A stretch of 64,000 nucleotides of DNA from Negativicutes bacterium (GCA_963665275.2 CAXXIN010000007.1:224001-288000), one strand, 5' to 3'. Shown: positions 8,784 through 30,904, counted from the first letter of the stretch. The notes: a model not told the origin generated them from the sequence alone. Numbers and translations: made by a program.

Positions 8784-8789
8784 CTCTCC

Positions 8790-12853: not shown

Positions 12854-14125
12854 TCAGGCCGATTCTTCCTTCTTCTTGGGTTTGCTCCGTTCCCCGCTCG
12901 TCACTAGAATGGGCTCGTCCTTGTTCACGACGCATTCCTTGGTGACAATGCATTTACTGACATCGGTGCGGGAAGGAACATCGTACATCACGTTGCACAT
13001 GACTTCCTCAATGATCGAACGCAGGCCCCGGGCGCCAGTCTTGCGTTGCAACGCAGCGTGGGCTACTGCCCGCAAGGCGTCCTCCTTGAATTCCAGCTGT
13101 ACGCCATCAAGCTCCAGCAGTTTCTGATACTGCTTCACCAGTGCGTTTTTGGGTTCCATCAGAATCCGGACCAACGCGTCTTCATCCAGGGAGTCGAGAG
13201 TCACCGTAACCGGCAAACGACCGACGAATTCCGGGATCAAGCCGAATTTCAGCAGATCTTCCGGCATCAGATGCCGCAATGTCTCACCGACATTCCGTTC
13301 TTCCTTGCCTTTGACTTCCGCGCCGAATCCCATGGTTTTTGTGCCGATGCGGTTTGCGATGATCTTTTCGATCCCATCAAACGCGCCGCCACAAATGAAC
13401 AGCACATTCGTTGTATCGATCTGGATGAATTCCTGATGCGGGTGCTTGCGTCCACCCTGTGGCGGCACACTGGCAACAGTTCCTTCGAGGATTTTCAGCA
13501 GAGCCTGCTGAACGCCTTCACCGGAAACATCGCGGGTGATCGACGGGTTTTCGGATTTGCGGGCGATCTTATCGATCTCATCGATATACACGATCCCGCG
13601 CTCCGCTTTTTCCACGTCATAATCCGCAGCCTGGATCAGTTTGAGTAAAATGTTTTCAACATCTTCCCCGACATAACCGGCTTCCGTCAGCGAAGTGGCG
13701 TCCGCCATCGCGAACGGCACATTCAAAATGCGCGCCAGGGTCTGGGCCAACAGAGTCTTGCCGCAACCCGTGGGGCCCAGCATGATAATGTTGGATTTTT
13801 GCAGTTCAACGTCGGCTGCCTTATTTCCCATTTCGATACGCTTATAATGATTATATACAGCAACCGAAAGGATTTTTTTCGCCTTGGCCTGCCCAATGAC
13901 ATAATCATCAAGGATTCGGTTGATCTCTTTCGGTTTGGGCAGTTCTTTGCCGCCTACCGTAATCTCTTCGCCCAACTCTTCCTCAATAATTTCATTGCAC
14001 AGGTCGATGCATTCGTCGCAAATATAGACACCGGGACCGGCAACGAGTTTTTTGACCTGCTCCTGCAATTTTCCGCAAAAAGAGCATTTGAGTTGAACTT
14101 TATCTTCGCTGAATTTCAAAGTCAT
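12854..14125 (-). CDS. clpX: ATP-dependent Clp protease ATP-binding subunit ClpX
   Basis: CSFCGK zinc finger, [22 protein letters not shown]. Confidence 0.99.
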
Positions 14126-14130
14126 ACCCC

Positions 14131-14745
14131 CTATCGGGCTTGTTCTCCGCCGGTCACCCTGCGGGACATAATTGAGTCGATGATGCCATATTCTTTCGCC
14201 TGCAAACTCGACATGAAATTATCCCGTTCAGTATCCTGCTGGATGCGTTCCATGGTCTGTCCGGTATTGGCAGCCAAAATTTCATTGAGCAATTCACGCA
14301 TCCGCAATATTTCGCGTGCATGAATTTCGATATCGGTAGCTTGCCCTTGGGTTCCACCCAACGGTTGGTGCACCATGATGCGGGAATACGGCAAAGAATA
14401 CCGTTTTCCTTTGGCGCCGGAGGATAGCAACATGGCGCCCATACTGGCGGCTGACCCCAGACAAATCGTCGCCACATCCGGTTTAATATACTGCATGGTG
14501 TCGTAAATCGCCAAGCCTGCAGTCACTGACCCGCCGGGTGAATTGATATACATCTGGACATCCTTGTCCGGGTCCTCGGACTCCAGGAACAACAGTTGCG
14601 CGATAATAAGGTTCGCAACGGTATCATCGATGGGTCCACCCAAAAAGATAATGCGGTCCTTGAGCAGGCGCGACCAGATATCATAGGCGCGCTCGCCCCG
14701 GTTGGACTGTTCCACTACAATCGGCACAAAGTTCAAGGTATTCAC
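14131..14745 (-). CDS. clpP: Clp protease proteolytic subunit
   Basis: [20 protein letters not shown]. Confidence 0.99.
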
Positions 14746-14773
14746 CTCATATCTCTAAATTTTTAATAGTCGT

Positions 14774-16063
14774 TTAGGCTTTTACTGCCGAGTCCGTGAT
14801 GAACTGCGCCGCTTTACGGCGAAGAATGGTTTCTTTGACCGCTTCGGCATGGCGCTTGTCCGCGAGCATTTTCTTCAGCTCGGCATCAGGCATTTTATAA
14901 GCCTTCGCCATCTTGTCCACTTCTTCGGAATACTCTTCATCGGATACAGCCAGTTCTTCCGCTTTGACGATCGCTTCGAGCGTCAGTTCCGTACGAACTT
15001 CTTCCAGGGCGGCCGGGCGATAGCGATCGCGCAGACCAGCCAGATCGGTGTTCATGTAACCCAGATACTTATCGAGAGATAGTCCTCGTTGACTCAAATT
15101 TGCATCCATATCCTGAATCATGTGTTCCACTTGATCATCGACCATGATTTCAGGCACTTCAATCGTAGCATTGGCGACCGCTTGTTTCAATGCCGCTTCG
15201 TGAAAAGCAGACTCATCTTTGTTTTTAGCCGCCTCAGCAAGCTTCGCCAGCGTCTTTTCCTTCATTTCGACCAAAGTGTCGGCATCGCCGGCTTCTTTGG
15301 CGAAGTCATCGTTCAACTCCGGCAGTTCTTTGCGTTTCACATCGTTGATCTTCGTAACGAAAACGGCTTCTTTGCCGGCCAATTCGGGCACAAAGTATTC
15401 CGAAGGGAACGTCACTTTGACTTCCCGTTCCTCACCGGCTTTGGCTCCGAGCAATTGCTCCTCGAATCCCGGAATGAAGCTGCCGGAACCAATTTCCAGC
15501 GGATAACCCTTCGATTGACCGCCGCTGAAAGGTTTACCATCAACCGTGCCGTCAAAATCGATGAGCGCAAAATCTCCCTGGCCCAGCGCCGCATCCTCAG
15601 CCACTACCATTTTGGCGTGCCGTTCACGCAGCGACTCCAGCTGTTTGTCGACTTCTTCCGAGGTGACTTCGGTCACTGGGGCATTCACTGTCAAACCCTT
15701 GTATTCGCCCAAAACCACTTCCGGACGGGTAACAACGCTGACCGTGAAAACGCAGGGTTCGCCGGCGTTCAGTGTAACATCGGTCACTTCCGGGCGACCT
15801 ACCGGATCGATCGTATTTTCTTCGACCGCCCGTCGATAAGCATCGGGAATGACGAAATCAAATGCTTCAGAACGCATCCCATCGGCGCCGACTCGCGCCT
15901 CGATCATTTTGCGTGGGGCTTTTCCTTTGCGGAATCCTGGAATATTTACCTGTTGCGCCAGCTTTTGGTATGCCTTCTCATAAGCCTTGGCAACGTCTTC
16001 CACCGGTAGTTCGATGACCAGTTCGGTGATATTGTGTTCTTTTTTTGATACTGTAACTTTCAC
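14774..16063 (-). CDS. tig: Trigger factor
   Basis: IPGFRKGKAP signature, FKBP domain FIPGFE; GTG start at 16063 after AGGAGG. Confidence 0.98.
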   Translation of the reverse strand: MKVTVSKKEHNITELVIELPVEDVAKAYEKAYQKLAQQVNIPGFRKGKAPRKMIEARVGADGMRSEAFDFVIPDAYRRAVEENTIDPVGRPEVTDVTLNAGEPCVFTVSVVTRPEVVLGEYKGLTVNAPVTEVTSEEVDKQLESLRERHAKMVVAEDAALGQGDFALIDFDGTVDGKPFSGGQSKGYPLEIGSGSFIPGFEEQLLGAKAGEEREVKVTFPSEYFVPELAGKEAVFVTKINDVKRKELPELNDDFAKEAGDADTLVEMKEKTLAKLAEAAKNKDESAFHEAALKQAVANATIEVPEIMVDDQVEHMIQDMDANLSQRGLSLDKYLGYMNTDLAGLRDRYRPAALEEVRTELTLEAIVKAEELAVSDEEYSEEVDKMAKAYKMPDAELKKMLADKRHAEAVKETILRRKAAQFITDSAVKA

Positions 16064-16209
16064 GTATTGTCCTCCTTTGAATCCTGCTGGAAGCTTTTCG
16101 GCAAGGAGCCGAAAACAGCCCTTTGCATTGACTTTTATTGTAACATTCTTGCCTAAAAAAAACAATCGACAAAGAAAAAACCGGCAGAAAACTGCCGGGA
16201 TTCCGTCGA

Positions 16210-16284
16210 TGGAGCGGAAAACGAGATTCGAACTCGCGACCCTCGCCTTGGCAAGGCGATGCTCTACCGCTGAGCTACTTCCGC
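16210..16284 (-). tRNA. tRNA-Gly(GCC)
   Basis: GCGGAAGTAGCTCAG...TTGCCAA...GTTCGAATC...CCA. Confidence 0.98.
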
Positions 16285-16299
16285 ATAGTAACAGAAATT

Positions 16300-16329
16300 A
16301 TTTTACTCTCTGAATGTTTCGTTTGTCAA
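16300..16329 (-). promoter_or_regulatory. sigma-A promoter for tRNA-Gly/tig
   Basis: TTGACA-18 nt-TAAAAT just upstream of the tRNA. Confidence 0.65.
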
Positions 16330-16336
16330 GACTTCT

Positions 16337-16447
16337 TTATTGGTGCGCCAACAGCCACTGTACCAAAACTGCGAGTCCTACCAGGACCCATACCAGCATT
16401 CAGGGACGGCAATAATTCTTCACGAACTCACCGATGCGAGCAAACAT
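16337..16447 (-). CDS. Candidate 36-aa membrane selenoprotein (CxxU), or a small gene with a nonsense mutation
   Basis: AGAGGAG RBS; MFARIGEFVKNYCRP(UGA)MLVWVLVGLAVLVQWLLAHQ-stop; hairpin GGGUCCU-GGU-AGGACUC whose loop starts 17 nt after the UGA. Confidence 0.55.
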
Positions 16448-16672
16448 GGCGTCCAACTCCTCTTTTGATTTGCAAAATTTCATACAGCTTCTTTCAAATT
16501 ATATATGAGGTAGTCAGGGATCACAATAGAGCCTCACGTTAAATTTAAGAGGCTGTTTTATGCTGGCGTTGACTCTTTTCATAATAAATTGGAAGGAATT
16601 AGAGCAAAGTGAGGCGAAGAATATTCTATTATCGAATATCAAAATAAATCAAACAGATGGGAAGGTGGAAAA

Positions 16673-17794
16673 ATGTCCCTGCGCGGAAAAATTCAGTGGC
16701 TATCATTTGTCTTGGTTCTCTTACTAGCAACCACAGTGCCTATGCAATCGACTGCAAATGCCTGCTCTTTCATCCAAGTCGTCGCCCAAGACGGAACCCG
16801 GATTACCGGTCGAACCATGGAGTTCGGCGTTGATATGAAACCGGCATGGGTGGTGACGCCCGCGGGAAAGGAGTTTACCAGCCCTGCGCCGGAAGGATAC
16901 CGGGGACTAGCCTGGAAAACCAAATACGGTTCTGTGGCAGCTCATAACTTTGGTGAGCAAACCATGGCGCTGGACGGAATGAATGAAAAAGGCCTGGTCG
17001 TCAGTGGACTCTGGTATGAAAACGACATGAAGTGGAATGATCCGGCCGATTCCAGCGGCAAGCCGGTTCTATCCCATGCCTTATTGATATCCTGGCTGTT
17101 GGGGAATTTCGAAACGACGGCCGAAGTCGCGAAAGCCGTCAAATCAGTCACCGTTTATGGGCAGCCTATCGCTTCGATGGGAGGAGCAATCCCCCCTCTG
17201 CACTTCGCCGCGCAAGACGCTTCAGGCGGCTCTATCGTCATTGAATGGGATCGTGGCGCCGTCAACGTTTATGATAACCCTCTGGGTATCATGACCAACG
17301 CGCCTAACTTTCCTTATATGATGACGAATCTGCGAAACTATGCCGGCCTCAATGCGGAGCAATGGAGTGCAACTCAATTCAATGGGGTCAAGGTTGTTCC
17401 AACGGGTCATGGAGCCGGCATGTTCGGCTTGCCCGGCGATATCACCCCACCCAGTCGATTCGTTCGGCTTGCCGTTCTGCGGCAATTTGCCGACCCGGCT
17501 CCCGATGCGGCCAATGCGCTGAAACTCGCGCGCCATCTGCTGAACTCCGTCTATATCACGCGGGGAACCATCGTGGACAGGAATGCAACCGGTGCGGTAA
17601 CGGCAGCGGAAAGCACCCAGTGGACGGCCTATTACGACCTGACCAACCGGGCGCTCTACTTTCAAACCTATGACAATTCGACCTTGCGAAAAATCGACCT
17701 GAAAGCGATTGATTTCAAAAGCGCCAATCATCAATCCATCAATTTGTCCTATGAAAACGAAACGATCATTGATGTTACAGGCCAAATCAAGTAA
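16673..17794 (+). CDS. Secreted Ntn-hydrolase, choloylglycine hydrolase / penicillin V acylase family
   Basis: Signal peptide ending ANA, then catalytic Cys (CSFIQ); GRTMEF, DGMNEKGL, TNAP, PGDITPPSRF. Confidence 0.92.
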   Translation: MSLRGKIQWLSFVLVLLLATTVPMQSTANACSFIQVVAQDGTRITGRTMEFGVDMKPAWVVTPAGKEFTSPAPEGYRGLAWKTKYGSVAAHNFGEQTMALDGMNEKGLVVSGLWYENDMKWNDPADSSGKPVLSHALLISWLLGNFETTAEVAKAVKSVTVYGQPIASMGGAIPPLHFAAQDASGGSIVIEWDRGAVNVYDNPLGIMTNAPNFPYMMTNLRNYAGLNAEQWSATQFNGVKVVPTGHGAGMFGLPGDITPPSRFVRLAVLRQFADPAPDAANALKLARHLLNSVYITRGTIVDRNATGAVTAAESTQWTAYYDLTNRALYFQTYDNSTLRKIDLKAIDFKSANHQSINLSYENETIIDVTGQIK

Positions 17795-19181: not shown

Positions 19182-20192
19182 TTATTTGTCGGGCGTTATC
19201 GAGCCATGCGGCACCGCCAGGAAAATCAACGAACAATTGGCATAATCGCCGGATTGCAGCAGCGCAACCAAATCGTAGGCGACTCCTTGTACCACGCCAA
19301 CGCCGGATACGCTGGAAAAATTCGGGTACATCAAGGCTGCAGTATTCAGATAGGCCGGAGTCGCAGTTGAACCTGCCGTAATCGAAGTCGGCGCCCAGGC
19401 GGTTTGCGCACCGGCTGCCTGAATTGTGAGAAACTGCGTCACGTTTAATGTGCTGGTATACGGCGGTTTGCCATCAATTGCCCCAATAGCGGTATTGGTT
19501 GTGCTCCAGCCGTAATTATTGGTTCCATCGCCGAAACTGAGTGCTGCGGCCGGCGAGAAAGACCACTTGAACCCAGAACTATAGGCGGGCGTAGCAAATC
19601 CTTCTGATCCGGTCACCATGAAATTCAGGTCAGCTGTTTTGGAATTCAGTTGGCCATTTGTACTGTTGATGACTATCGGCACTGAAAAATATGCCGTATG
19701 AGCGGCATACGATTGATATGGGGTTTGAGTGCTATTGTTGGCTTTATTAGTCAAGTCAATACTGTTGGGATTGTAATTCTTATTGTTCTTGTCACTGGAT
19801 TGAACCCAGGAGTTGTTCGGGTTGTTCAAGCCGATTTGCACGGAATGAAAAGCAAAGCCGCTGCTGCCGGTCGCTTTCCCTCCGCCACCGCTGCTGTCAT
19901 TAGAACCAGTGATCCCCTTCAGCCAAAACGATTCGACGGCAGTGGGCGTGTTAGGAATTTGCGACCCGGAAAAGCCTTTCATGATGTCGTTCTTTTTTGC
20001 GGGATCGCCGATATAAATCTCCCATGGGGTCATGTTGATAATATTTAGCACATTCAGCATATTCATCGTCGGTTTATTATACTGTACCTGGGTATAAGCC
20101 ATGATGCTGGCGTAGGGAGCATTGGCCGAGACCAGGCTGCTAAAAGCAAACACAAATGCCATCAGGCAATAGGCCACCGTTCTTTTAAGCAT
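19182..20192 (-). CDS. Hypothetical secreted Ser/Thr/Asn/Gly-rich protein
   Basis: Sec signal peptide (..SLVSA|NA), 336-aa open frame, no family recognised. Confidence 0.75.
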   Translation of the reverse strand: MLKRTVAYCLMAFVFAFSSLVSANAPYASIMAYTQVQYNKPTMNMLNVLNIINMTPWEIYIGDPAKKNDIMKGFSGSQIPNTPTAVESFWLKGITGSNDSSGGGGKATGSSGFAFHSVQIGLNNPNNSWVQSSDKNNKNYNPNSIDLTNKANNSTQTPYQSYAAHTAYFSVPIVINSTNGQLNSKTADLNFMVTGSEGFATPAYSSGFKWSFSPAAALSFGDGTNNYGWSTTNTAIGAIDGKPPYTSTLNVTQFLTIQAAGAQTAWAPTSITAGSTATPAYLNTAALMYPNFSSVSGVGVVQGVAYDLVALLQSGDYANCSLIFLAVPHGSITPDK

Positions 20193-20226
20193 TGCAAACT
20201 CCTCGCTTTATCGCTTATTTCCGCTA

Positions 20227-21672
20227 TCAGTGCGCCAGTTTCGCCAGATAGGAATGAATCGCTGGAATCTCCGCCTTGTGTTTTTCGAAGATCTCTTTCG
20301 CTTTCATCCTTATGCTCGCCACGCCATTGGGGTCGTGTTTTGCCTTGCCATATTGACCATTCATCCCGAATAAATCAAGCATCTTTTGTGCATCTTGCGG
20401 GTTTTTCTTGGAGATAGTCGTAATAATTTCCAATAATTTGAACGTATCTTGCGACTCCTCACGGCGCGGCTTGTATTGACGCTTCGCCGTGGAAACCATT
20501 GCATTGGACGGACTGTTCAGGCATGTCTGCATTTGCGCAGCGGCATAAACGCCATTGTTGACCAAAATAACAACCAGCGTGTCGGCTGCGTTTCGTTCAG
20601 GGCTCGAGGTATTTAGCGGACTGGTTCGCCAGGTATATACAATCAGCGAATTTTGTTGTTCCAACGGCAGCGTTGTCGTTGAATTCGCCGCAGTCGTATT
20701 ATATACGAGGTAGCTGCTGTTGCCGCTTTGCATCGGCAAGGCAAGTCCCGTGCTACCATTTGCCGGCAATGCTGCCGTAACATTGATTCCCTTGTAGGTT
20801 GCCGGATAGGGTGCGTTGGTATATACCTCCGACCCCGAATCAAGCATTTCCTTAACCGATGTATATATGCCGTAAACCATATCGGCCACGGTCAGCGGAT
20901 TCGGCTCCAGGATCGTGTCGATATCGATCAGCAGCGTAAGTATATCCTCCACCCAATCTTGTTTAGGTGGAAAAGTGCTTTGCCCAGATTGATAGGCACT
21001 CGTGGCGCCACCCAGGCTGTTGATATTGATGGCATAGCCCGGCAGCGTCGCTCCGGTGCTGGAAACCAGTTTCAGATTGATCGAGCTTATCGACGGATTG
21101 GCCATACTTTGCCCAAACGCCTGTTGTTGCGGCGTAACCGAGTGATATGTATTGGCTGGTCCGGGTGTTGCCCCCATGCTGGCGCCGCCCGGAGACTGAT
21201 AGGTTGTATATGAAGTATTGGGAAAACTAACCGTGCCGCTCCAAGACGGAAACAAAGCAAACGCATTGACAAAGCCGAAGTTCGTGTTGGCGGCGGCGCC
21301 GGAAGATAAAACCACCGGCTGCAAGGAGGCATTCGTTGCGCCACTTGGTGTAATGGCGGGCGTAGTCGGATTGCTGAAAAACGGAGTTGTTCCCCCTTGC
21401 GCATAAGCTACCCCAGACAACCCCATGGCGATGGGGGTGTTCGCTTTTGCATATGCCGAGGCCTGGTTGGTGGAAACGTTCATATTGATCGCCGACTGGG
21501 TCAGGTTCATCAGCATTACAGGTAAAACACCATAGGTCTGAATCTGAACCGCCGTTCCTGCTGGCGGCGGCGATACCGGCGCGTCTGCCTGCACGACATT
21601 GTTGGACATGACTACAAAAACAAAAAACAAGGGCAAGGCCAATTTACGAAAGCCACATTTAGCACCACACAT
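20227..21672 (-). CDS. Hypothetical secreted Ser/Thr/Asn-rich protein with charged helical C-terminus
   Basis: Strong RBS, signal peptide (..VVQA|DA), 481-aa open frame, no family recognised. Confidence 0.78.
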   Translation of the reverse strand: MCGAKCGFRKLALPLFFVFVVMSNNVVQADAPVSPPPAGTAVQIQTYGVLPVMLMNLTQSAINMNVSTNQASAYAKANTPIAMGLSGVAYAQGGTTPFFSNPTTPAITPSGATNASLQPVVLSSGAAANTNFGFVNAFALFPSWSGTVSFPNTSYTTYQSPGGASMGATPGPANTYHSVTPQQQAFGQSMANPSISSINLKLVSSTGATLPGYAININSLGGATSAYQSGQSTFPPKQDWVEDILTLLIDIDTILEPNPLTVADMVYGIYTSVKEMLDSGSEVYTNAPYPATYKGINVTAALPANGSTGLALPMQSGNSSYLVYNTTAANSTTTLPLEQQNSLIVYTWRTSPLNTSSPERNAADTLVVILVNNGVYAAAQMQTCLNSPSNAMVSTAKRQYKPRREESQDTFKLLEIITTISKKNPQDAQKMLDLFGMNGQYGKAKHDPNGVASIRMKAKEIFEKHKAEIPAIHSYLAKLAH

Positions 21673-23595: not shown

Positions 23596-23713
23596 ACTGT
23601 ATTTTATACTACTATTATCGTATTATGATCATTACTTCTGAACGCGACCTGTCGCAACTAAACCGATGCCATCCAGTAAAACCTTTGAAGCGCAAACGCG
23701 TAACAGCATAGAA

Positions 23714-23748
23714 AAATGACCTACCGCATTTATTATAGTAGGTCATTT
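23714..23748 (-). terminator. Probable terminator closing the phage-like module
   Basis: aaatgacctac...gtaggtcattt inverted repeat just after the 118-aa ORF. Confidence 0.6.
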
Positions 23749-23772
23749 CCCTTTTGCAAATTATATTCTTTT

Positions 23773-24129
23773 TTATACCTCTTCGTCTTCCTTCAGCTCG
23801 ATGGTCTCGCCCTCGAGCGTCCCGTCCCACGTCACCTCAGACAGCGGCTCGTCGTCGCCCCCTCCGGCGCCGGTTCCTCCCTCATCCTCCATCGCCAATA
23901 TCGCCGCCACCCGGTGGATGATGTCATGCGCCTCCTCAACGCGCCTCCTGGCCATTGTCTCGCCCTCGTCCGCCGCTTCCTCGTCCTCAGTCACATCATC
24001 CACCGCGCCGATCACTTCGCCGATCTGGCCGATCCGGCGCTGGGTAAGATCATCGCGGGAGGCGACCGCCCCTAATGCTCCGAGCAATACTTTCAATATC
24101 CTCGTTACCTCTGTCAACAACATCGTCAA
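23773..24129 (-). CDS. Hypothetical protein with amphipathic N-terminus and highly acidic C-terminus
   Basis: RBS AAGGAAAGGGG; co-oriented downstream of yvrJ. Confidence 0.7.
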   Translation of the reverse strand: MTMLLTEVTRILKVLLGALGAVASRDDLTQRRIGQIGEVIGAVDDVTEDEEAADEGETMARRRVEEAHDIIHRVAAILAMEDEGGTGAGGGDDEPLSEVTWDGTLEGETIELKEDEEV

Positions 24130-24246
24130 AACCCCTTTCCTTATCTATTTTTAACGGGTTAATGCAAAATCGCGGGACCGTCGCCTTTCCTTCGGCAGCG
24201 TGTCCCGCGTTTTGTTTGCTTTCTTGCCCGGATGGCCGGTCAGCGT

Positions 24247-24368
24247 TTATGCCTTCATTTTTTCATTTCGCGCTCGCCACTCCCGGCATTCGTTGCAACG
24301 GTTCATCTGGTCTTCCATCCGCTGGGCGATCGCCACGGCCGTCTTTTCAAACGCCCCCAGCCGATCGT
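24247..24368 (-). CDS. YvrJ-family protein, exon 2
   Basis: After intron removal it continues exon 1 in frame: D-DRLGAFEKTAVAIAQRMEDQMNRCNECREWRARNEKMKA-stop. Confidence 0.85.
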
Positions 24369-26749
24369 GTTACCCTAAGCCAGCAAGTCGCCCTACTGAC
24401 TCGGCTTCAAAACCGGACTTGACAGTTTCCCGTCATCCGGCTCCTCAACTTTCCATACTTTCTGAAGAGCGGCTCCTATTTCGACAATGCTCATGTGCCA
24501 GTTGACTGATCTCCCGTTGTCTACCATTCTTACTTTTGCCGATTCGCTCCATGACGGCTACCGGTTCCGACATCCGGGTAAAGTACAAACCACATATCGC
24601 GCAGCATCCCTTTTGTTTCTTGAGAAGCCTTGCGACGTAATTGTCCAGTTCCGGATGCCGCCCCATCCGAGTGGCCCAGTACAACCAGTCCCCATCATAA
24701 GGACTGCGTTTTCTGTCCACTTTGATGTGACGACGAATCGGTGTTTCACCGTGCAGGTACAGGGTCGCCCCCTCCGAAGAACGGAATTGCCATCGCTTGC
24801 CGTTATGATGCCAATACTTTCGGTAGATCCATTGCTTCGCTTTGTTTGGGTGTCTGCGTTTCATCCAGGCCCACAGCTTTTCCCACAGAACGTGCTGCAA
24901 TTTGCTGAACATTCTAGATGAAGCCTGGGTGGAATAGTAGCGACACCAGCCCCGAATAATCGGGTTGAGTATGCGAATCAGTTTCTCCTGTGTACCGGCT
25001 TGGAGGCTGTCGATGACTTCTCCCATTCTATCTTGGTGGCGAAGGACACCATCCTTGCTGGGACGAATCAGTGGGAGAAACGTTAATCGCTCCTCACTGT
25101 TCGTATACCGTCGGGTATGGGTTTGCCCCGCTGGTACCTGTTGTATATGGAAGCCGAGGAAATCAAATCCCGGCGGCTGCCCGTTGATCGCTTCCAAGGT
25201 ATGGACGATGCGGGTTTTGGTCGGACTTAATTCCAGACCCATCGTTGCCAGCCATTTCTCCGTAACTTTGCGGAGATTATGGATGACTTCCAAGTCGCGA
25301 TGCATGATCACAAAGTCGTCCGCGTACCGGATGACCCGAGGCCACCACGTCACGTCTTCTCCTGCAATCATACGGCGATAAGGGATTTGACGCTTGATCT
25401 CCTCTTCCAACCCATGCAGCGCGATGTTTGCCAAGAGCGGAGAAATCACCCCTCCTTGCGGCGTCCCTCGCTCTGCCCGCTGGAAGACGTCTCCTTCCAT
25501 TACTCCAGCTTTTAACCACCTTCGCACGATGCGACGCACCCGTGGGGCTGCGTCCATCTTATTGAGTAGCGCGCGGTGGTCGATGCGGTCGAAACATTTT
25601 GCAATGTCCGCATCCAGTACATATTTCGGTTGATGAGCAATTTGTCCGAATATGTATTGAATCGCATCATGGCAGCCCCTGCCGGGACGGAAGCCGTAGC
25701 TGTTTGGTTCAAACCGGGCTTCCCATTCCGGCTCCAGAGCCTGCTTGACCATCGCCTGTGCCGCCCGGTCTTGAAGGACCGGGATTCCCAGCGCTCGTCG
25801 CTCCGTTTTCCCCGGTTTGGGGATGTATATACGGCGCACGGCCTGTGGCACAGGAATCTGCTTGAGCTGTTTGGCCAACTGGATTTTGTCTTCCTGGCTG
25901 ATGGAGGCTATCTTATCCACGCCGGGCGTTTTCTTCCCGGCGTTGTCTTGAGCCACGCGCCGCACGGCGAGTAACCGGGCGGGCCACGAGGCGATAAGCA
26001 GCCGCTGCAGCCGTTGAACATTTCGCTTGTCGCCCTTTAGAGTCGCTTGGTAGATTCGTTTTTGAAGCTTGAAAACCGCCCGCTCGACTTGCGGCCAGCA
26101 AATGGTCTTCCATTCATCCATCGGCAGTTGTGCCGTGTCCATGACATATCCACTCCTACTATCGAAATACCATTTGGAAAACCGGGGCCACGTCTGCTTA
26201 TCCGTCGGCTTTCCCGACGGCATTTGCTTCTTGGCCCATCCTGCCCTCCGTTGGCATACGGTTGACTGCCTGCTCCGAAAAGAATCCGGAGAGCCAGCGG
26301 AGAGTTACCCCGTTCCTGAATATCGTTTTGCGTAAAGGGTAGAACCGCACTATCCACCGGGTTTCTGTGAGTGTGGAACCGGTCGCAACTCGAGACGCCG
26401 GCCTCGTATCCTTGTCCGTTTTGGACCAAGCCCTTCGGTCCGCGTTGGGGGCTTGTTCTGGTTGACGGTGGTTCACGCATGCGTTCGCTTTCGCTGTTCT
26501 TGCTTTACCTGCTTGCGGGAGTTCCCGAGTCGGACTCCGGGTTACCCGCGTTTCGCCCATGCTGGCACCGTTCGGTTTGTCACTTCCGCACAGTGTGGGC
26601 GATGATGTTCCCTGTCCACCACAGGGGCTGGGAATTGAGTTTCCTCGCGCCCAGCTTCGATATTCAAGTTGTCGCTGAAGGCCTTCTGACCTTCACTGCC
26701 TCCCATCCCTTCAAACCCATGGCTTGAATTTCAGGAGAACGGGTCGCAC
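24369..26749 (-). mobile_element. Group II intron (IIB, chloroplast-like class) inserted in yvrJ
   Basis: 5' GTGCGACCCG at 26749; domain V GAGCCGGATGACGGGAAACTGTCAAGTCCGGTTT, domain VI and ...GTAAC 3' end at 24369; candidate EBS1 CGAGUU (26387-26392) pairs with exon end AACTTG. Confidence 0.93.
24445..26142 (-). CDS. ltrA: Group II intron reverse transcriptase/maturase (RVT_N, RT, X, degenerate HNH)
   Basis: VFKLQKRIY, GKKTPGVD, SYGFRPGR, GTPQGGVISPLL, RYADDF, RGWCRYY, KQKGCCAICG; start moved to MDTAQL after AGGAG. Confidence 0.95.
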   Translation of the reverse strand: MDTAQLPMDEWKTICWPQVERAVFKLQKRIYQATLKGDKRNVQRLQRLLIASWPARLLAVRRVAQDNAGKKTPGVDKIASISQEDKIQLAKQLKQIPVPQAVRRIYIPKPGKTERRALGIPVLQDRAAQAMVKQALEPEWEARFEPNSYGFRPGRGCHDAIQYIFGQIAHQPKYVLDADIAKCFDRIDHRALLNKMDAAPRVRRIVRRWLKAGVMEGDVFQRAERGTPQGGVISPLLANIALHGLEEEIKRQIPYRRMIAGEDVTWWPRVIRYADDFVIMHRDLEVIHNLRKVTEKWLATMGLELSPTKTRIVHTLEAINGQPPGFDFLGFHIQQVPAGQTHTRRYTNSEERLTFLPLIRPSKDGVLRHQDRMGEVIDSLQAGTQEKLIRILNPIIRGWCRYYSTQASSRMFSKLQHVLWEKLWAWMKRRHPNKAKQWIYRKYWHHNGKRWQFRSSEGATLYLHGETPIRRHIKVDRKRSPYDGDWLYWATRMGRHPELDNYVARLLKKQKGCCAICGLYFTRMSEPVAVMERIGKSKNGRQREISQLAHEHCRNRSRSSESMES

Positions 26750-26822
26750 CAAGTTTGATCAAGAGCCAAGCGGCCACTGCAATCGGGAATCCCACCTGGG
26801 ATATGAGCTGCGCCCAGTCCAT
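26750..26822 (-). CDS. YvrJ-family small membrane protein, exon 1
   Basis: MDWAQLISQVGFPIAVAAWLLIKL matches the YvrJ GFPIxV motif; follows the DUF2922 gene. Confidence 0.88.
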
Positions 26823-26826
26823 CGGA

Positions 26827-27039
26827 CTACGCCAGCACCGTGGTATCCTGAGTCAGGATGATCGGATCGACTGCCGAGACGAGATCTCCGCCGCTCGATG
26901 CGAACAGGTTCCGGGCGATGATCATGGTTTGTGTGGCAACGGCTTCCGCTTTGGTGAGGTTTTCTTTTGGATTGGCGATGAGGATGTTCACATCCTTGCC
27001 TGCCGCGTTCTTGAAGCCGAGTTTGGCTGTTCTAGTCAT
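26827..27039 (-). CDS. DUF2922-family protein
   Basis: LGFKNAAGKDVNILIANPKENLT...IIARNLF...GGDL pattern; usual neighbour of DUF1659 and YvrJ. Confidence 0.85.
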   Translation of the reverse strand: MTRTAKLGFKNAAGKDVNILIANPKENLTKAEAVATQTMIIARNLFASSGGDLVSAVDPIILTQDTTVLA

Positions 27040-27075
27040 CGGTTGCTCCTCCTTTCGCCAGATTTTTTACCGGCG

Positions 27076-27300
27076 TTACTCGCCGATCAGGTTGGCGCTG
27101 TCGGTGCGAACGATCGCAACGAGCGATTTCGCCTGCAGTCCCGCGAGACTGGCGCCGACATCATAGATGTCCTGGTCGGTGGCGGTCGGTTTCACGTTGG
27201 AAAAGCTCAGCGTCTTGAAGACGTTGGCCCCGGTGGCGCTGACGCCATTCACGACTTTGATGCCGATCCGGGATTCCTGGGGTGCTTTCGTAACAGCCAT
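27076..27300 (-). CDS. DUF1659-family protein
   Basis: MAV...GVSATGANVFKTLSFSNVKPTATDQDIYDVGASLAGLQ pattern; RBS GGAGGG. Confidence 0.87.
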   Translation of the reverse strand: MAVTKAPQESRIGIKVVNGVSATGANVFKTLSFSNVKPTATDQDIYDVGASLAGLQAKSLVAIVRTDSANLIGE

Positions 27301-27414
27301 GAGGATCCCTCCTTCCTGGGTAACGCGGATTTCGCGCTCCCAAACATTCTATGAAAAACGGGACTCAGTGCCCCGATTTTCCGGTTGTGCCCACATCCCG
27401 CCTTTTTTTGCCGC

Positions 27415-27537
27415 CCGACGGTTCAGCAAGGTTCAGCTACAAGGCACGGCGAGGCTTGTACTGCGCCGCGTACAAATCGTACGCAAGCAGGACAAACACA
27501 GTCGTAACGCCGTAGATGGGCCTTGCTGGGCCGCCGG
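27415..27537. repeat. ~123-bp imperfect palindrome (REP/MITE-like)
   Basis: Nested arms ccgacgg/ccgccgg, cagcaagg/ccttgctg, cacggcg/cgccgta, gcgtac/gtacgc. Confidence 0.65.
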
Positions 27538-27713
27538 ACATGAGAAAAGGACACGCCATGGCTGACGTGTCCCAAAAACGGGGATGGAGGTACTATATGG
27601 CAGCCGCAAGGTAATTAGTCCTGCGGGTGAGCCCGGTATCGTGCGCCCCATCCCCATAGAGCCTATGTAGTTTTCAAGGTTTGTTTTTGTCTACAGTCTT
27701 ATTATACGTCGGT

Positions 27714-28286
27714 TTATTCGTCCGTGAACGCCTCCGGCGGAAATCTTTTCAGTTCTTTTTCATAGTCATCCACTCCTACCGCGATGGCGGCTCCCATCCG
27801 CCATTGCTCCAGCGAATCGGTGAGCATTTCTCGATCCACCACATTGGAGATAAAGCCTCCTTCGACGAGCACCGCCGGACAGTCCGTCTCCCGCAGCACC
27901 TGGAAGCTCGCTTCCTTGACGCCCCGGTCGTCGGTGAGCATGGCATCGGTCATGCAGAACTGGATGCAGCGGGCCAGCTGACGCCCTTTGATACTACCGG
28001 GATAGTAGTACGTTTCTGTTCCGTCGGCATCGAGGTTCTCCGAGCTGTTGCAGTGAATACTGATGAACAGGTCGGCTCCCCACTGGTTGGCCCGTTCCGC
28101 CCGAAAAGCCAGTCCATCGCTTTCGATGTGCTTGGGTCGGGTCAGGATCACTGCGTGTCCGCGCAGCTTGAGCTCTGCTCTGGCAAAGCGGGCGATGTAC
28201 CAGTTGATATCGGCTTCATTGCAACCGCCGGCGCACGCCCCCGGCTCCACGGGGCCGCTATGCCCCGGATCAAGTACGATTTTCAT
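27714..28286 (-). CDS. N-acetylmuramoyl-L-alanine amidase (Amidase_3), no signal peptide or cell-wall-binding domain
   Basis: LDPGH, E, FISIHCN, PAVLVE motifs. Confidence 0.93.
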   Translation of the reverse strand: MKIVLDPGHSGPVEPGACAGGCNEADINWYIARFARAELKLRGHAVILTRPKHIESDGLAFRAERANQWGADLFISIHCNSSENLDADGTETYYYPGSIKGRQLARCIQFCMTDAMLTDDRGVKEASFQVLRETDCPAVLVEGGFISNVVDREMLTDSLEQWRMGAAIAVGVDDYEKELKRFPPEAFTDE

Positions 28287-28374
28287 AACACAACCTCCCT
28301 CGAATTATTTTATCGTCACTCGGCTCATCTTCACCAAAATAAGGTGCCATGAAGTCGGGATTATTTGCATCGTG

Positions 28375-28683
28375 TCAGCCATTTTTGAATGGCGCGATCT
28401 CGTCCGCTCGGACGAACCTGTGTTTCCCCGGCACTTCCGGGTCCGTTCCCTCACATGTATGGATCGCCCCATATACCATCACCTGCTGGCCGCGAACTGC
28501 GGCTTTTTTCAACACCTTCAAACATTCGTTAACGCCAACGACTTCCATGATCTCCGGCTTACCGCCCTTGCTGTCGTTGACTCTCAGGGAAAACCAGTAA
28601 CGAAATCTTCCAGACTTTGTCTTTACCTGTTGAGGTTCTCCGGTCAGCGTTCCCGTGATCATTACATGATTCATCGTTATCAT
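28375..28683 (-). CDS. Single-stranded DNA-binding protein-like (OB fold, no acidic tail)
   Basis: MNHVMITGTLTGEPQ...TKSG...FSLRVN...RGQQVMVYGAIHT parallels SSB. Confidence 0.7.
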   Translation of the reverse strand: MITMNHVMITGTLTGEPQQVKTKSGRFRYWFSLRVNDSKGGKPEIMEVVGVNECLKVLKKAAVRGQQVMVYGAIHTCEGTDPEVPGKHRFVRADEIAPFKNG

Positions 28684-28720
28684 CCTCTCTTCTTTTTTTG
28701 ATTCTGATTTTCAACTTAGG

Positions 28721-28935
28721 TTATGCACATTTCCACCCCCTTTATTACTACGACGTTCTTAAATAGTTTATGTCTGGTTTGGTATAGGATCCGCACCAGA
28801 CCTGTATTTACGCGCTTCGCGGCTTGCGCTTGAACACATTCTTGAACACAACCTTAGACACATTCTTGAACACAATCGTGAACCTCATGGGTTCAAGCAG
28901 CTTTTATGCACAAACTTATCCACAGGTTATCCACA
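28721..28935. other. Putative replication origin of the module: 12-bp iterons plus DnaA boxes
   Basis: Five 12-bp tandem units (ttgaacacattc-like, 28830-28889); perfect TTATCCACA at 28916-28924 and 28927-28935; one-mismatch TTATGCACA at 28904 and 28721. Confidence 0.65.
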
Positions 28936-28948
28936 GATTTTGAGCTAA

Positions 28949-29356
28949 CTAGCGCACGATATGCAGATTGAGCCGATTCAGGCGATGCGGACTGTTGGCA
29001 GGCAACCGTTTTCGCTTCGGCGGCTTCTCCTCTTGCTGTGCGCCATAATTTCCAGCATCATTAGTGACTTTTGCTTCTTCAAATCCCAAGAGACAATATA
29101 TCGCCGGGCGTCCGCCTTTTTGCTGAAAGTGCAGAATCCGCCCTGCTTCGACCAATTCTTTGCGGCATCGGGTTAGCTGAGTCCGGCTTACACGCAGCAA
29201 CGAAGCTAGCGAGACCGTAGGCACGGCGAACTCTTCCGGCCACCCTGCTTTGTTATCTATCGACATCAACAGGTTCCAGAGCGCCTGAGCGTGCGGCGAT
29301 AGCGGATGTGTTGCCAGCCAGCTGTAAAAATGATTGATTTCAAACAGGTAGTTCAT
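28949..29356 (-). CDS. Phage-type replication initiator N-terminal wHTH (DnaD-like / replisome organizer), short form
   Basis: MNYLFEINHFYSWL...LSPHAQALWNLLMSIDNKAGWPEEF...RCRKELVEAGRI pattern. Confidence 0.8.
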   Translation of the reverse strand: MNYLFEINHFYSWLATHPLSPHAQALWNLLMSIDNKAGWPEEFAVPTVSLASLLRVSRTQLTRCRKELVEAGRILHFQQKGGRPAIYCLLGFEEAKVTNDAGNYGAQQEEKPPKRKRLPANSPHRLNRLNLHIVR

Positions 29357-29540
29357 GACAAACGGACGCGCACGCCGCGCTGAAATTCAGAGATGCCCCG
29401 ATAGACATAGATAAGGCGGGTCTTTCACCCGCCTTCAATTTTCGTGGATCACACATAATATTCACAGGTTTCTCCGCCTTTGCGTCCGGTATATCGGGCG
29501 GCAGCTCTCCCTGTCGCATGATTGAATAGAGTTTTTTCAT
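29340..29540 (-). CDS. Small hypothetical protein
   Basis: RBS AAGGGG; overlaps the rep start; first gene divergent from the repressor. Confidence 0.5.
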   Translation of the reverse strand: MKKLYSIMRQGELPPDIPDAKAEKPVNIMCDPRKLKAGERPALSMSIGASLNFSAACASVCHELPV

Positions 29541-29572
29541 TACACGCATCCCCTTTCTTTTTTGTGCCAAAT

Positions 29573-29607
29573 AATCACATGATTGTAATAATCACAAAAT
29601 TGATTAT
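29573..29607. promoter_or_regulatory. Candidate Xre operators in the divergent promoter region
   Basis: Related palindromes aatca-ca-tgatt and ataatca-caaaat-tgattat. Confidence 0.45.
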
Positions 29608-29708
29608 ATTCCTGCTCACTCAGAATTGCAATAGCTTACGATTGCGTCATTTTTTGCACCTTGTTAAATCGTTATCGTATCGCTAAAATAGAATTTGAGG
29701 TGATAACG

Positions 29709-30047
29709 TTGCTGGCAAGAAATATTCAGACCGCTCGAAAAAAATTAGGCCTAACCCAGGAGGAACTGGCCGATCAAATCGGCGTCAAGCGAGCCGCTCT
29801 CGCCTCTTGGGAAACGCGCCGCTCCAAACCGGACATCGACGACTTCATGAAATTGTGTAATACGCTGAAAATAAGGCCAGAAGATCTATCCGGTTTTTCG
29901 TTCGCGGGCGAACTTTCCAATTTCCAGCAGCCAGTGATCGATTTGGCAATCATTTTGGCCACTCTTCCTCCCTCTGTGTTTCCAATGGTCAGGAAAATGA
30001 TCCTGTCGCTATCGGATGAAGTCAACGGCGACAAGCCCGAGGAATAG
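29709..30047 (+). CDS. Xre/Cro-CI family HTH repressor
   Basis: ARKKLGLTQEELADQIGVKRAALASWETRRSKP; TTG start after GAGGTG. Confidence 0.92.
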   Translation: MLARNIQTARKKLGLTQEELADQIGVKRAALASWETRRSKPDIDDFMKLCNTLKIRPEDLSGFSFAGELSNFQQPVIDLAIILATLPPSVFPMVRKMILSLSDEVNGDKPEE

Positions 30048-30099
30048 CTAGGACTGGTATTAAAATACTGGCCGGATGCGGCAGAGGTGGGTATTAAGC

Positions 30100-30675
30100 A
30101 TGTACACCTGCGAAAAATGTGGCGAAAACTATCGTGGAAATTTCGGCAAATGCGCCAATTGTGGTGGAGAAATTGTCATTGCCCCGCCACGCCCGACGTG
30201 GAAACAGAGGTTCGCTGCTAAATCCATTCAAGCAAAAACCACTCCCAAAAAAACCACGCAGAAAATTCGACGAAGAAAAAAAGACTTTATCATTTTTTTT
30301 ATTGTCGCAGGAATAATCGCATTAGTATTTTTCACAACTAAAAGCACTCCGTCTACATCGGCTTTACCCGGTCCAACGAATAATGTCGTTGCCAATGAAG
30401 CCACTTCCGCCAAACGCCCAGGCGACATTACCGTCCTGAAGCATAATGCGCTCATCGCGGTTAATGACGACGCCTATGCCGCCTTCGGCAAGTTTTCATC
30501 TGCAAACAACAAAGACGAAATAGCCCGCATGATAACCAGCGGTCGCTTAGTTCTCGTTGGCATCGGCGCAAAAATCACGATTACCAAAGTTAACGGTGAC
30601 ATTTCTTTTGTTGAGGTAACAGACGGACCAACTACCGGGACAAAAGGCTGGCTATTAAATTCTTTGATGCGATAA
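30100..30675 (+). CDS. Zinc-ribbon membrane protein (type seen in prophage immunity regions)
   Basis: CEKCG...CANCG, basic linker, one TM, extracytoplasmic domain. Confidence 0.7.
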   Translation: MYTCEKCGENYRGNFGKCANCGGEIVIAPPRPTWKQRFAAKSIQAKTTPKKTTQKIRRRKKDFIIFFIVAGIIALVFFTTKSTPSTSALPGPTNNVVANEATSAKRPGDITVLKHNALIAVNDDAYAAFGKFSSANNKDEIARMITSGRLVLVGIGAKITITKVNGDISFVEVTDGPTTGTKGWLLNSLMR

Positions 30676-30704: not shown

Positions 30705-30845
30705 ATGACAAATACAGGTTCTACTACAGAAAGGATCTTTGAAACGAAAACCCTGATGATTATACTGATCATTGCGCTGCCGGCGCTCGTTGCCGGAGGG
30801 ATACTGGCTGACCTGATGGTTTGGCTTTTGTATTCCTGCTATTAA
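30705..30845 (+). CDS. Small hydrophobic protein, copy 1
   Basis: MTNTGSTTERIFETKTLMIILIIALPALVAGGILADLMVWLLYSCY; paralogous to 33825-33953. Confidence 0.5.
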   Translation: MTNTGSTTERIFETKTLMIILIIALPALVAGGILADLMVWLLYSCY

Positions 30846-30904
30846 AAGCCTGGCTGGAATCGGCAGGGGTGATTGGCGAGAAACTTGAGGAAACGGGAGA
30901 AAAA

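Follow-up and report, generated by a model that had tools for sequence, protein, structure and literature searches.

Gene Content and Relatives of a Compact, Integrase-Less Locus of Probable Prophage Descent in a Negativicutes Bacterium

Gene Content of the Locus

The subject of this study is a block of genes at positions 23714-30675 of a 64,000-nt stretch of DNA from a Negativicutes bacterium (GCA_963665275.2 CAXXIN010000007.1:224001-288000), which is referred to in its entirety as the window. The block contains a switch region from which an Xre-family repressor gene and a gene for a zinc-ribbon membrane protein are read rightward, and a leftward run that comprises a small open reading frame (ORF), a putative replication initiator gene, a gene for a protein resembling single-stranded DNA-binding protein (SSB), an amidase gene, the tandem genes for DUF1659, DUF2922 and YvrJ (PF07872, PF11148 and PF12841, in that order), the last with an intron, and a gene for an acidic protein (Table 1). 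Genes in the window were called as ORFs and assigned to families with Pfam, NCBIfam and PHROG, and RNAs were identified with Rfam. Every feature listed in an initial annotation of the block, including the divergent Xre switch and its rightward zinc-ribbon protein gene, was recovered in the ORF list and family scans, and the size it gave for the block minus the intron, ~4.6 kb, agrees with our value of 4581 bp (6962-2381). All ORFs of the block are open, the spliced yvrJ reading frame is intact, and each of the block's families occurs once within the 64-kb window.

By Pfam, none of the 53 ORFs in the window belongs to a terminase, portal, capsid, tail, relaxase or integrase family, as had been noted initially. 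No integrase match or remnant was identified in the window when the integrases of the relatives described below were used as tblastn queries, and there is no repeat resembling an attachment (att) site; the window's tRNA cluster is not repeated near the block. On both sides the block is flanked by housekeeping genes (valS with a T-box, folC, tatC, lon, clpX, clpP, tig, ftsH and tRNAs).

On balance, we favor the interpretation that the block belongs, as a copy without an integrase, to a recurrent and mosaic family of compact, prophage-derived immunity-replication-lysis elements of Negativicutes. The initial annotation had read the layout as immunity, replication and lysis genes of a minimal element. 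The first part of that reading is supported by the gene order and its recurrence; as to the second, the compact order does recur beside an integrase in related genomes, but the window copy has neither integrase nor att repeat.

Table 1. Coordinates of features in the block (window positions) and of one repeat in related loci.
Feature	Position	Strand	Evidence
AT-rich hairpin and T-run closing the late operon	23712-23748	-	direct reading, 11-nt arms; too AT-rich for the consensus terminator scan
Acidic 118-residue protein, hydrophobic N-terminal stretch	23773-24129	-	no Pfam, NCBIfam or PHROG family
yvrJ exon 2	24247-24368	-	locus-built YvrJ profile, E 2e-10
Group II intron with reverse transcriptase (RT)/maturase ORF (24445-26223)	24369-26749	-	RVT_N, RVT_1, GIIM; Rfam Intron_gpII
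yvrJ exon 1, single transmembrane helix	26750-26822	-	Pfam YvrJ, 29.0 bits, positions 1-19 of 36
DUF2922 protein, 70 residues	26827-27039	-	PF11148, E 3e-16
DUF1659 protein, 74 residues	27076-27300	-	PF07872, E 1e-23
Second short hairpin and T-run just before the DUF1659 ribosome-binding site	27359-27375	-	terminator-like scan
Conserved structured leader RNA	27538-27677	-	alignment of 14 close copies, RNAalifold consensus, covariance model
Sigma-70-type promoter TTCACG-16-TATAAT, overlapping the amidase stop codon	27701-27728	-	promoter scan, 10/12 matches
Amidase_3, N-acetylmuramoyl-L-alanine amidase, catalytic domain only, endolysin type, 190 residues	27714-28286	-	Amidase_3, E 3e-43
SSB-like OB-fold protein, 102 residues, without acidic C-terminal tail	28375-28683	-	PF00436, E 1e-9
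Origin-like region	28829-28935	.	12-bp iterons and DnaA boxes beside the predicted initiator gene
Winged-helix protein, 135 residues, putative replication initiator	28949-29356	-	PHROG 19658, PHROG 186
ORF of 76 residues heading the leftward operon, unverified gene	29340-29570	-	ORF list only
Divergent switch region	29571-29708	.	back-to-back promoter-like sites, repeated AATCA/TGATT half-sites (promoter scan and direct reading)
Xre-family repressor	29661-30047	+	HTH_3, E 9e-15; many PHROG repressor families
Zinc-ribbon protein, single transmembrane helix	30076-30675	+	no Pfam; weak NCBIfam TcaA and zinc-ribbon matches
GC-rich repeat, ~250 nt	L019 15050-15350; L028 8860-9160 (inverted); L037 19780-20120; L074 5950-6250; L077 11940-12240

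Integrase-Bearing Relatives

Related loci were sought by scanning one genome per species with patterns derived from 19 close DUF1659 sequences, which returned 115 relatives, the best 80 of whose loci (numbered with the prefix L) were used. ORFs were taken from all six frames of all loci and scanned with profiles iterated from the window proteins. Several genomes hold two to four DUF1659 loci each.

The same gene order as in the block is accompanied by an integrase in seven loci from cultured Sporomusaceae: Sporomusa sp. KB1 (L019), S. aerivorans (L028 and L031), a genome labeled Pelosinus propionicus (L029), Propionispora (L037) and Anaerospora hongkongensis (L074 and L077). These loci begin with a gene for a tyrosine integrase of ~415 residues (PF00589 and a SAM-like domain), followed on the same strand by Xre. 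Divergent from this pair are an HTH_17 excisionase-like gene, a gene for a winged-helix protein of 123-126 residues, in five of the seven an SSB gene (116-119 residues, PF00436, E 1e-25), sometimes one gene of no assigned function, and then Amidase_3 (178-291 residues) directly upstream of DUF1659, DUF2922 and YvrJ. In six of the seven loci the integrase gene lies beside a tRNA gene, with tRNA-Arg(ACG) abutting it in five and tRNA-Lys in L077; in L019 only the 3' part of tRNA-Arg is present. The left flanks of the five loci with tRNA-Arg are all different (23S rRNA; 5S rRNA and tRNA-Trp; hexokinase; sulfatase; impB and tRNA-Leu). Across the module the two copies in Anaerospora agree at 90% identity and yet have different integrases at different tRNAs. 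Between S. aerivorans (L028) and Propionispora (L037) the DNA is 83.6% identical over a segment that starts at the tRNA and ends ~90 nt after the yvrJ stop codon, the identity not extending further. As in the window, no virion genes were found: over the survey as a whole, Pfam identified terminase, portal, capsid and tail families in none of the 297 locus ORFs or cluster representatives within 10 kb. It had been foreseen initially that a triad unlinked to replication genes elsewhere would speak against the proposed element; in Negativicutes the triad is found with Xre, initiator, SSB and amidase genes, including the seven cases with an integrase.

Three further observations were made on these loci. 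Relative to L074, the right arm of L077 has an insertion (12872-16837) encoding an OLD-family ATPase (AAA_15 and TOPRIM) and a UvrD-type helicase, which we take to be a Gabija-like pair. A GC-rich repeat of ~250 nt, 84-92% identical between genera and containing an 11-nt match to the tRNA-Arg 3' region, is present in or near the elements in either orientation (Table 1). Lastly, the locus labeled Pelosinus propionicus DSM 13327 (L029) is 95% identical over 7 kb to that of S. aerivorans DSM 13326 (L028), an unusually high value across genera that points to recent transfer or a labeling issue.

Nearest Relatives of the Window Copy

The loci closest to that of the window come from 13 metagenome-assembled genomes (MAGs; L001-L010 and L012-L014), whose DUF1659 proteins are 62-78% identical to that of the window. 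All have DUF1659, DUF2922 and YvrJ; 12 of them also have a homolog of the acidic protein after YvrJ, and eight have an Amidase_3 gene no more than 3.6 kb upstream. Another locus, L011, has only the leader RNA described below and DUF1659. Most MAG loci have other phage-type genes upstream in place of the window-type initiator, among them genes for a helicase-loader-like protein, an SbcC-like ATPase and Bro/ANT antirepressors. Six of eight replication-type ORFs from this clade that were compared with PHROGs and Pfam had matches (PHROG 270, 5810, 16167, 2562 and 9804; DnaD_N, DnaB_2 and Lin1244_N). The window copy combines a Sporomusa/Anaerospora-type initiator with MAG-type late genes and is itself a mosaic.

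Putative Replication Genes and Origin

The putative initiator of the block matches PHROG 19658, "replication initiation protein," with an E-value of 3e-7 over the first 71 profile positions only, and PHROG 186, "DnaD-like helicase loader," with an E-value of 2e-4. Its counterparts at this position in L019, L028, L037, L074 and L077 are 38-44% identical to it. In the initial annotation it was described as the N-terminus of a DnaD-type initiator. The gene is not truncated, because the members of its family are 118-148 residues long and the window protein, at 135 residues, is therefore full length; a search for longer relatives found none. HTH_36 scored below threshold in 10 of 21 family members, with no Pfam match above the cut-off, and a sequence search of the PDB with the winged-helix profile gave nothing significant. 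A winged-helix protein of the window type is encoded in eight of the 48 loci for which both flanks were available, all of them in Negativicutes.

A 12-bp iteron is repeated 4.6 times beside the initiator gene (28829-28887), where there are also two perfect DnaA boxes in tandem, 11 bp apart (28916-28935). The latter are the only two in the window, where 0.47 would be expected, and two or more were found anywhere in eight of 100 shuffled sequences. Iterons and DnaA boxes adjoining an initiator gene fit the layout of an iteron-type origin, making this region a putative origin of replication. At the same position the integrase-bearing relatives differ in having one near-consensus DnaA box and an inverted repeat, where the window has iterons. 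The SSB-like protein of the window is 27% identical to the 119-residue SSB at the corresponding position of the integrase-bearing elements.

Amidase and YvrJ as a Candidate Lysis Pair

The amidase of the block covers positions 1-173 of the 174 in the Amidase_3 profile and aligns along the whole catalytic domain of solved amidases. Several comparisons relate it to phage endolysins: it matches the endolysin family PHROG 435 with an E-value of 1e-48, it scores 105.7 bits against the CwlD model (cut-off 221.55), and it matches 133 phage records, being 35-42% identical to phage endolysins, with the best match to the endolysin of Moorella phage MTATph1 (39% identity). The annotation of the MTATph1 region around this match lists no DUF1659, DUF2922 or YvrJ gene. 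The window amidase has no wall-binding domain and no signal peptide, the latter deduced from direct reading, because the protein starts at its catalytic domain. An Amidase_3 gene lies between 3.6 kb upstream and 1.5 kb downstream in 18 of the 48 loci with both flanks.

YvrJ is a candidate partner of this enzyme. Exon 1 alone scores just below the Pfam cut-off for YvrJ (29.0 versus 29.5 bits), both exon fragments match the YvrJ profile built from the loci, and exon 1 matches the "holin" family PHROG 4898 with an E-value of 7e-4. The same PHROG is matched by 25 of 27 YvrJ homologs from the loci (best E 4e-8). In tblastn searches YvrJ-like genes were identified in 33 records of small Bacillus podophages, including QCM11 (NC_049959.1), in which a YvrJ-family gene of 49 residues lies between the tail lysin and endolysin genes, directly upstream of the latter, and so occupies the classical holin position. 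The suggestion in the initial annotation that YvrJ is a holin-like partner of the amidase gains support from these matches and from the QCM11 gene order. Both components of a lysis cassette, an intact cytoplasmic hydrolase domain and a nearby holin-family membrane protein, are present as judged by annotation, and the simplest reading of the gene content is that the amidase is an endolysin that would depend on a holin, a gene of a holin family being located 1 kb from it. As a speculation, the acidic protein with its hydrophobic N-terminal stretch could serve the outer-membrane step that a diderm host would require.

A Structured Leader RNA Upstream of DUF1659

The amidase and DUF1659 genes are separated by 413 nt that hold a promoter, a structured leader RNA and a terminator. 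The -10 box of the promoter is kept across copies, and three relatives have TTGACA-17-TATACT. The leader RNA is ~110 nt long and has a closing helix of 9-12 bp, an inner hairpin, an invariant GYCAUA stretch and an intrinsic terminator of 11 bp (27573-27548). Close copies number 14 (the window, L001-L007 and L009-L014), every one of them upstream of DUF1659. A covariance model built from these scores the window leader at 135.6 bits and finds divergent leaders upstream of DUF1659 in L074, L077, L037, L057, L063 and L022 (E 1e-6 to 1e-9), and the same architecture was recognized by eye in L028. In the divergent leaders the closing helix has an entirely different sequence with pairing retained. 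In an alignment of 20 sequences, pairing is retained in 98.1% of cells and both sides have changed in 21 of 29 pairs, values that are favored by the alignment having been fitted to the model. With the same fitted alignment, none of 500 shuffles reached the observed covariation, and slid controls gave at most 0.092 compared to 0.413. Folds of single sequences produce the same shape, with z-scores of -4.2 (window, minimum free energy) and -7.1. That the structure has been kept through compensatory changes indicates selection. There was no Rfam match over 27301-27713, even at E<=1, and none at gathering scores at the homologous place in L028, L037, L074 or L077.

A promoter, a covarying structure and an intrinsic terminator ahead of DUF1659 correspond to the generic layout of a terminator-type leader or attenuator, and the leader is possibly a new cis-regulatory RNA, acting by antitermination or in a riboswitch-like manner, of a putatively regulated DUF1659-DUF2922-YvrJ operon. 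Since no convincing alternative antiterminator helix was seen, we lean toward factor-dependent antitermination of the late operon; the leader may instead be a ligand switch or a separate small RNA. The window shares with L007 and L009 an extra ~150 nt between the leader terminator and DUF1659 (window ~27380-27535, - strand), absent in other copies, a stretch that may represent either another RNA element or a small insertion.

The Intron within yvrJ

The intron in yvrJ has all the hallmarks of a bacterial group II intron: it is 2,381 nt long with GTGCG...AC ends (GUGYG...AY consensus), an RT/maturase ORF, Rfam domain V/VI at 24369-24446, and flanking exons in frame. Exon 1 (26822-26750) joins exon 2 (24368-24247) without a stop codon, producing a protein of 64 residues, of which 54-57 are identical to those of uninterrupted homologs of 63-64 residues in L001, L002 and L005. 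As the spliced reading frame is intact, yvrJ is interrupted and not destroyed.

A group II intron is also present in the MAG locus L005 (7617-9602, RT ORF 8193-9602), between the leader terminator and DUF1659, with a GTGCG motif starting a few nucleotides past the T-run of the terminator. From these two different positions we conclude that the cassette has been entered by introns at least twice. The window itself has a second group II intron at 60076-61868 (- strand), with an RT/maturase ORF at 60110-61546 and Rfam matches to D1-D4 and domain V.

Distribution of the DUF1659-DUF2922-YvrJ Triad

DUF1659 is represented by 274 sequences at E<=1e-3 in a library of 1.84 billion proteins. DUF2922 adjoins and follows it in 73 of the 80 loci, and YvrJ follows in 49 of the 58 that have at least 1.5 kb of downstream DNA. 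The triad's recurrence in Firmicutes, noted in the initial annotation, is evident in genomes, in plasmids (43 in PLSDB carry DUF1659) and in contigs from virus-like particles. With regard to the last, a virome study lists amidase, Mor, recombinase, PF11148 and PF12841 among the 20 commonest functions (PMC11170907).

Outside Negativicutes the contexts of the triad are varied. In four Pelotomaculum-type loci (L027, L034, L035 and L051) it directly follows a CwlD-like amidase of 271-282 residues in a conserved chromosomal context with no replication genes, and a Peptidase_M15_3 gene follows the triad in five of 59 clustered loci. A 19-kb Paraclostridium plasmid has the triad together with genes for an amidase, a Mor activator and a sigma-70-family protein, and a C. 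estertheticum plasmid has a sigma factor gene, then YvrJ and DUF1659. The link that had been proposed between the triad and such elements therefore stands in Negativicutes, where the triad is tied to Xre, initiator, SSB and amidase genes, but is not specific, as elsewhere the triad is found in ordinary chromosomal and plasmid contexts.

There is some information on function from Staphylococcus aureus, in which the DUF1659/DUF2922 pair SroA/SroB is reported to be SigS-induced and to act on sigS mRNA stability and metabolism (bioRxiv 10.1101/2022.10.19.512975; PMC13192611). In a phenotype-prediction study, DUF1659 clusters with sporulation domains. We found nothing to support the initial proposal that the DUF1659 and DUF2922 proteins are structural subunits; the SroA/SroB pair reportedly behaves as regulators, and we consider the two most likely to be a small, soluble regulatory or adaptor pair. 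Their sequence patterns look alike, and we considered whether they are paralogs; despite this resemblance the hhalign probability was 0.56% and not significant. Sequence searches of the PDB with both profiles returned nothing significant.

Repressor Switch and Neighboring Features

The true start of the Xre gene is likely the TTG at 29709, which would produce a protein of 112 residues. Xre homologs, oriented divergently from the replication genes, occur in 12 of the 48 loci for which both flanks were available. The ORF of 76 residues that heads the leftward operon is unverified as a gene, because it has no family and no homolog in any locus; its position is filled in the relatives by the HTH_17 excisionase-like gene. 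No homolog of the zinc-ribbon protein was found in the surveyed loci.

A 36-nt direct repeat, 81% identical between its copies (30054-30089 and 30836-30871), flanks the zinc-ribbon gene. The first copy begins 7 nt past the Xre stop codon and the second is upstream of an EamA transporter gene. By a rough estimate the repeat is unlikely to have arisen by chance, and an insertion or a duplication may have left it as a scar. Beyond the left end of the block, at 19182-21672 (- strand), are adjacent genes for proteins of 336 and 481 residues rich in Ser, Thr, Ala and Asn, with apparent N-terminal signal-like sequences and no Pfam, NCBIfam or PHROG family, which are possibly surface proteins of the diderm envelope.

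Interpretation and Alternatives

We infer the following order of events from the arrangement of the genes. Xre, transcribed divergently, would keep the leftward operon off. Upon lifting of repression the early operon would be expressed, and the winged-helix initiator would bind the adjacent iterons, recruit host DnaA at the two DnaA boxes and load the host replication machinery, assisted by the SSB-like protein, such that the element replicates. The amidase, as a product of the early operon, would meanwhile build up in the cytoplasm. The near-consensus promoter downstream would drive the leader RNA, which would end at its strong terminator before the genes for DUF1659, DUF2922, YvrJ and the acidic protein. 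Read-through of this terminator, whether by antitermination or by ligand- or protein-controlled attenuation, would allow expression of the late operon, with YvrJ produced after splicing, and YvrJ, as a holin-type protein with one transmembrane helix, would give the amidase access to the wall.

Several points weigh against our interpretation of the block as a copy of a prophage-derived element family. The first concern mobility. With neither an integrase nor a detectable att repeat, the window copy is itself of doubtful mobility, and as no integrase was identified among the ORFs examined in the 13 nearest MAG loci, that clade may be immobile. Even the integrase-bearing relatives yielded no att repeat, the tRNA 3' end not being repeated downstream in six of these loci, and they have no defined right boundary: all that an alignment of the right ends revealed in common was a small ORF overlapping the stop codon of yvrJ. 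Both copies in S. aerivorans fall within a segmental duplication that spans 15 kb or more. The second concern function. The assignment of the initiator comes from weak PHROG matches and position, its Pfam winged-helix matches being sub-threshold. The "holin" of PHROG 4898 is an annotation and not a tested function, and the amidase gene is in the early unit upstream of the holin-like gene, not in the usual holin-then-endolysin order, which was seen only in L057 and L073. The third concern the triad. No match to DUF1659 or DUF2922 was found at E<=0.01 in 50,697 phage records by tblastn with the window queries and a clostridial DUF2922, and the matches at E<=10 were at chance level and in tail genes. 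Most non-Negativicutes loci have the triad without any replication gene, the Pelotomaculum triad is next to its CwlD-like amidase gene after rplM-rpsI (rplM upstream in L027, rpsI in L034), and plasmid copies are beside sigma factor genes. As the triad occurs outside such elements, its function need not be phage lysis. Finally, the sample of loci, being the best 80 of 115 found with close-relative patterns, is biased toward Negativicutes, Pelotomaculum, Desulfosporosinus and Moorella, and the small ORFs of the 59 other (non-Negativicutes) loci were annotated or sent to Pfam only if recurrent.

An alternative that merits consideration, albeit one we regard as unlikely, is that the block is an inert relic, in which the eroded repressor/replication left end and the lysis end of a tailed prophage remain after deletion of the morphogenesis genes, with residual or no function. 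The absence of an integrase and att repeat from the window, the intron inside yvrJ, and the phage-type character of all recognizable block genes, with replication modules as mosaic as those of phages, are what a relic would be expected to show, and the YvrJ family is present in real phages, with PF11148 and PF12841 reported in virus-like-particle contigs in the virome study mentioned above. Decay, however, is not apparent: all ORFs are intact, and despite the intron a yvrJ of 64 residues can still be spliced together. The compact order is also found in at least seven integrase-bearing loci and its late part in 13 MAG loci of several genera (eight with the amidase), there are two to four copies per genome, no structural gene was identified within 10 kb among the 297 ORFs examined, and the compensatory changes in the leader RNA imply selection.

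Somewhat less probable in our estimation is that the cassette of amidase, leader, triad and acidic protein is a cellular system for wall remodeling, stress, sporulation or holin-like export that was captured by mobile DNA, with Xre, initiator and SSB as hitch-hikers. Such an origin would account for the four Pelotomaculum-type loci, for the sigma-70-family genes adjoining the plasmid copies and for the restriction of the winged-helix initiator to eight of 48 loci, all in Negativicutes, most loci elsewhere having no replication gene. It would also agree with the reported clustering of DUF1659 with sporulation domains and with the description of SroA/SroB as sigma-factor-induced regulators. In Negativicutes, however, the cassette moves with integrase and replication genes as a unit, as evidenced by the L074/L077 duplicate and by the segment shared by L028 and L037 that ends just past yvrJ. 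Two to four paralogous copies per genome occur in varied contexts, and the amidase has no export signal and a far better score as a phage endolysin than as CwlD.

We consider it improbable that the element, or at least its integrase-bearing relatives, is an active phage satellite, excised and replicated on helper infection and packaged in helper capsids, with amidase and YvrJ tuning the timing of lysis: no small terminase, capsid-size or packaging-interference gene was recognized, the sole terS-like signal being a weak match to an HTH domain, the window copy has no integrase, no helper is known, and to our knowledge satellites do not usually carry a lysis cassette of their own. The features that do recall satellites are the integrase beside a tRNA gene in six of seven relatives, the divergent Xre, the HTH_17 excisionase-like gene, the initiator with its origin, the small size, the defense cargo of L077, and the reported precedent of minimal satellites that manage excision and replication with just three core proteins (PMC10803314).

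We therefore return to the prophage-derived element family as our preferred interpretation, of which there is a stronger and, we believe, rather doubtful form. The relatives would in that case represent undescribed, capsid-less integrative elements of Negativicutes, ~5-6 kb in size, with their own origin, lysis by a YvrJ holin and amidase, and a late operon gated by the leader RNA, that spread as satellites or via DNA or vesicles released by lysis. Full-text searches on DUF1659, DUF2922, YvrJ and sroAB yielded no description of an element like this one, nor was one apparent among the papers listed on prophages and integrative elements of Sporomusa and other Negativicutes. If this stronger form is correct, the triad would receive its first function, as the late/lysis module of a mobile element. 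Should the integrase-bearing relatives prove active, they would rank with the smallest integrative elements known in Firmicutes that replicate themselves and would have no forerunner of this kind in diderm Firmicutes, and the leader would count as a new structured regulatory RNA. If instead the relatives are inactive, a replication-plus-lysis core of a prophage can persist as a conserved multi-copy unit. In either case the triad, which had no assigned role, is now tied to a signal-less endolysin-type amidase, a holin-family YvrJ and a conserved leader RNA, and hypotheses on its role can be tested.

Comparison with Known Systems

Of the features of a tailed prophage, the window has the repressor switch, replication and lysis genes, and lacks the morphogenesis genes, integrase and att sites. 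The block resembles cryptic or defective prophages in being chromosomal, with phage-type repressor, replication and lysis genes and no morphogenesis genes. Prophage relics are usually idiosyncratic and decaying; here, in contrast, the order is conserved across genera, the locus is multi-copy, the genes are intact, and the leader is kept by compensatory changes.

[quoted passage not shown] The seven relatives possess an integrase, a repressor and excisionase as a divergent pair, and an initiator with its origin; the window copy has no integrase and no recognizable excisionase. In the relatives only, the resemblance extends to an integrase at a fixed chromosomal site and, in one copy (L077), to defense cargo. 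The elements described here differ in having no genes for packaging or capsid redirection (no family of packaging or capsid-interference genes, i.e., terS, ppi, cpm or equivalents, was identified in the Pfam and PHROG scans), in having their own amidase and holin-like genes, and in their Negativicutes host, with no helper known. PICMIs are described as minimal satellites with three core proteins that integrate next to fis (PMC10803314), which is not where the elements here are found, and the window copy is without an integrase.

The ϕ29-like Bacillus podophage QCM11 is similar in that a protein of 49-64 residues with one transmembrane helix, of the YvrJ/PHROG 4898 family, is encoded next to a peptidoglycan hydrolase. 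In the phage, however, the holin gene directly precedes the endolysin gene and there is no DUF1659 or DUF2922, whereas in the window the amidase gene is upstream in another transcription unit and yvrJ is third in its operon and split by an intron.

In Bacillus subtilis, yvrJ is dependent on SigO-RsoA. The sroAB genes of S. aureus belong to the same Pfam families as the window genes, have the same tandem DUF1659-DUF2922 order, and are reportedly under tight gating by a dedicated regulator. Both sroAB and B. subtilis yvrJ differ from the window genes in being chromosomal and controlled by sigma factors, without amidase or replication genes; the putative gate in the window is a leader RNA with a terminator, and there is no sigma factor gene nearby.

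With respect to that gate, the closest parallels are units for antitermination of late operons, such as lambda pR'-tR' with Q and the put RNA of HK022, and terminator-type riboswitches. The window lacks a recognized Q-like protein, an obvious antiterminator helix and an Rfam match, but it shares with these systems a promoter that is strong and looks constitutive, a transcript that is short and structured, and an intrinsic terminator immediately before lysis-type genes.

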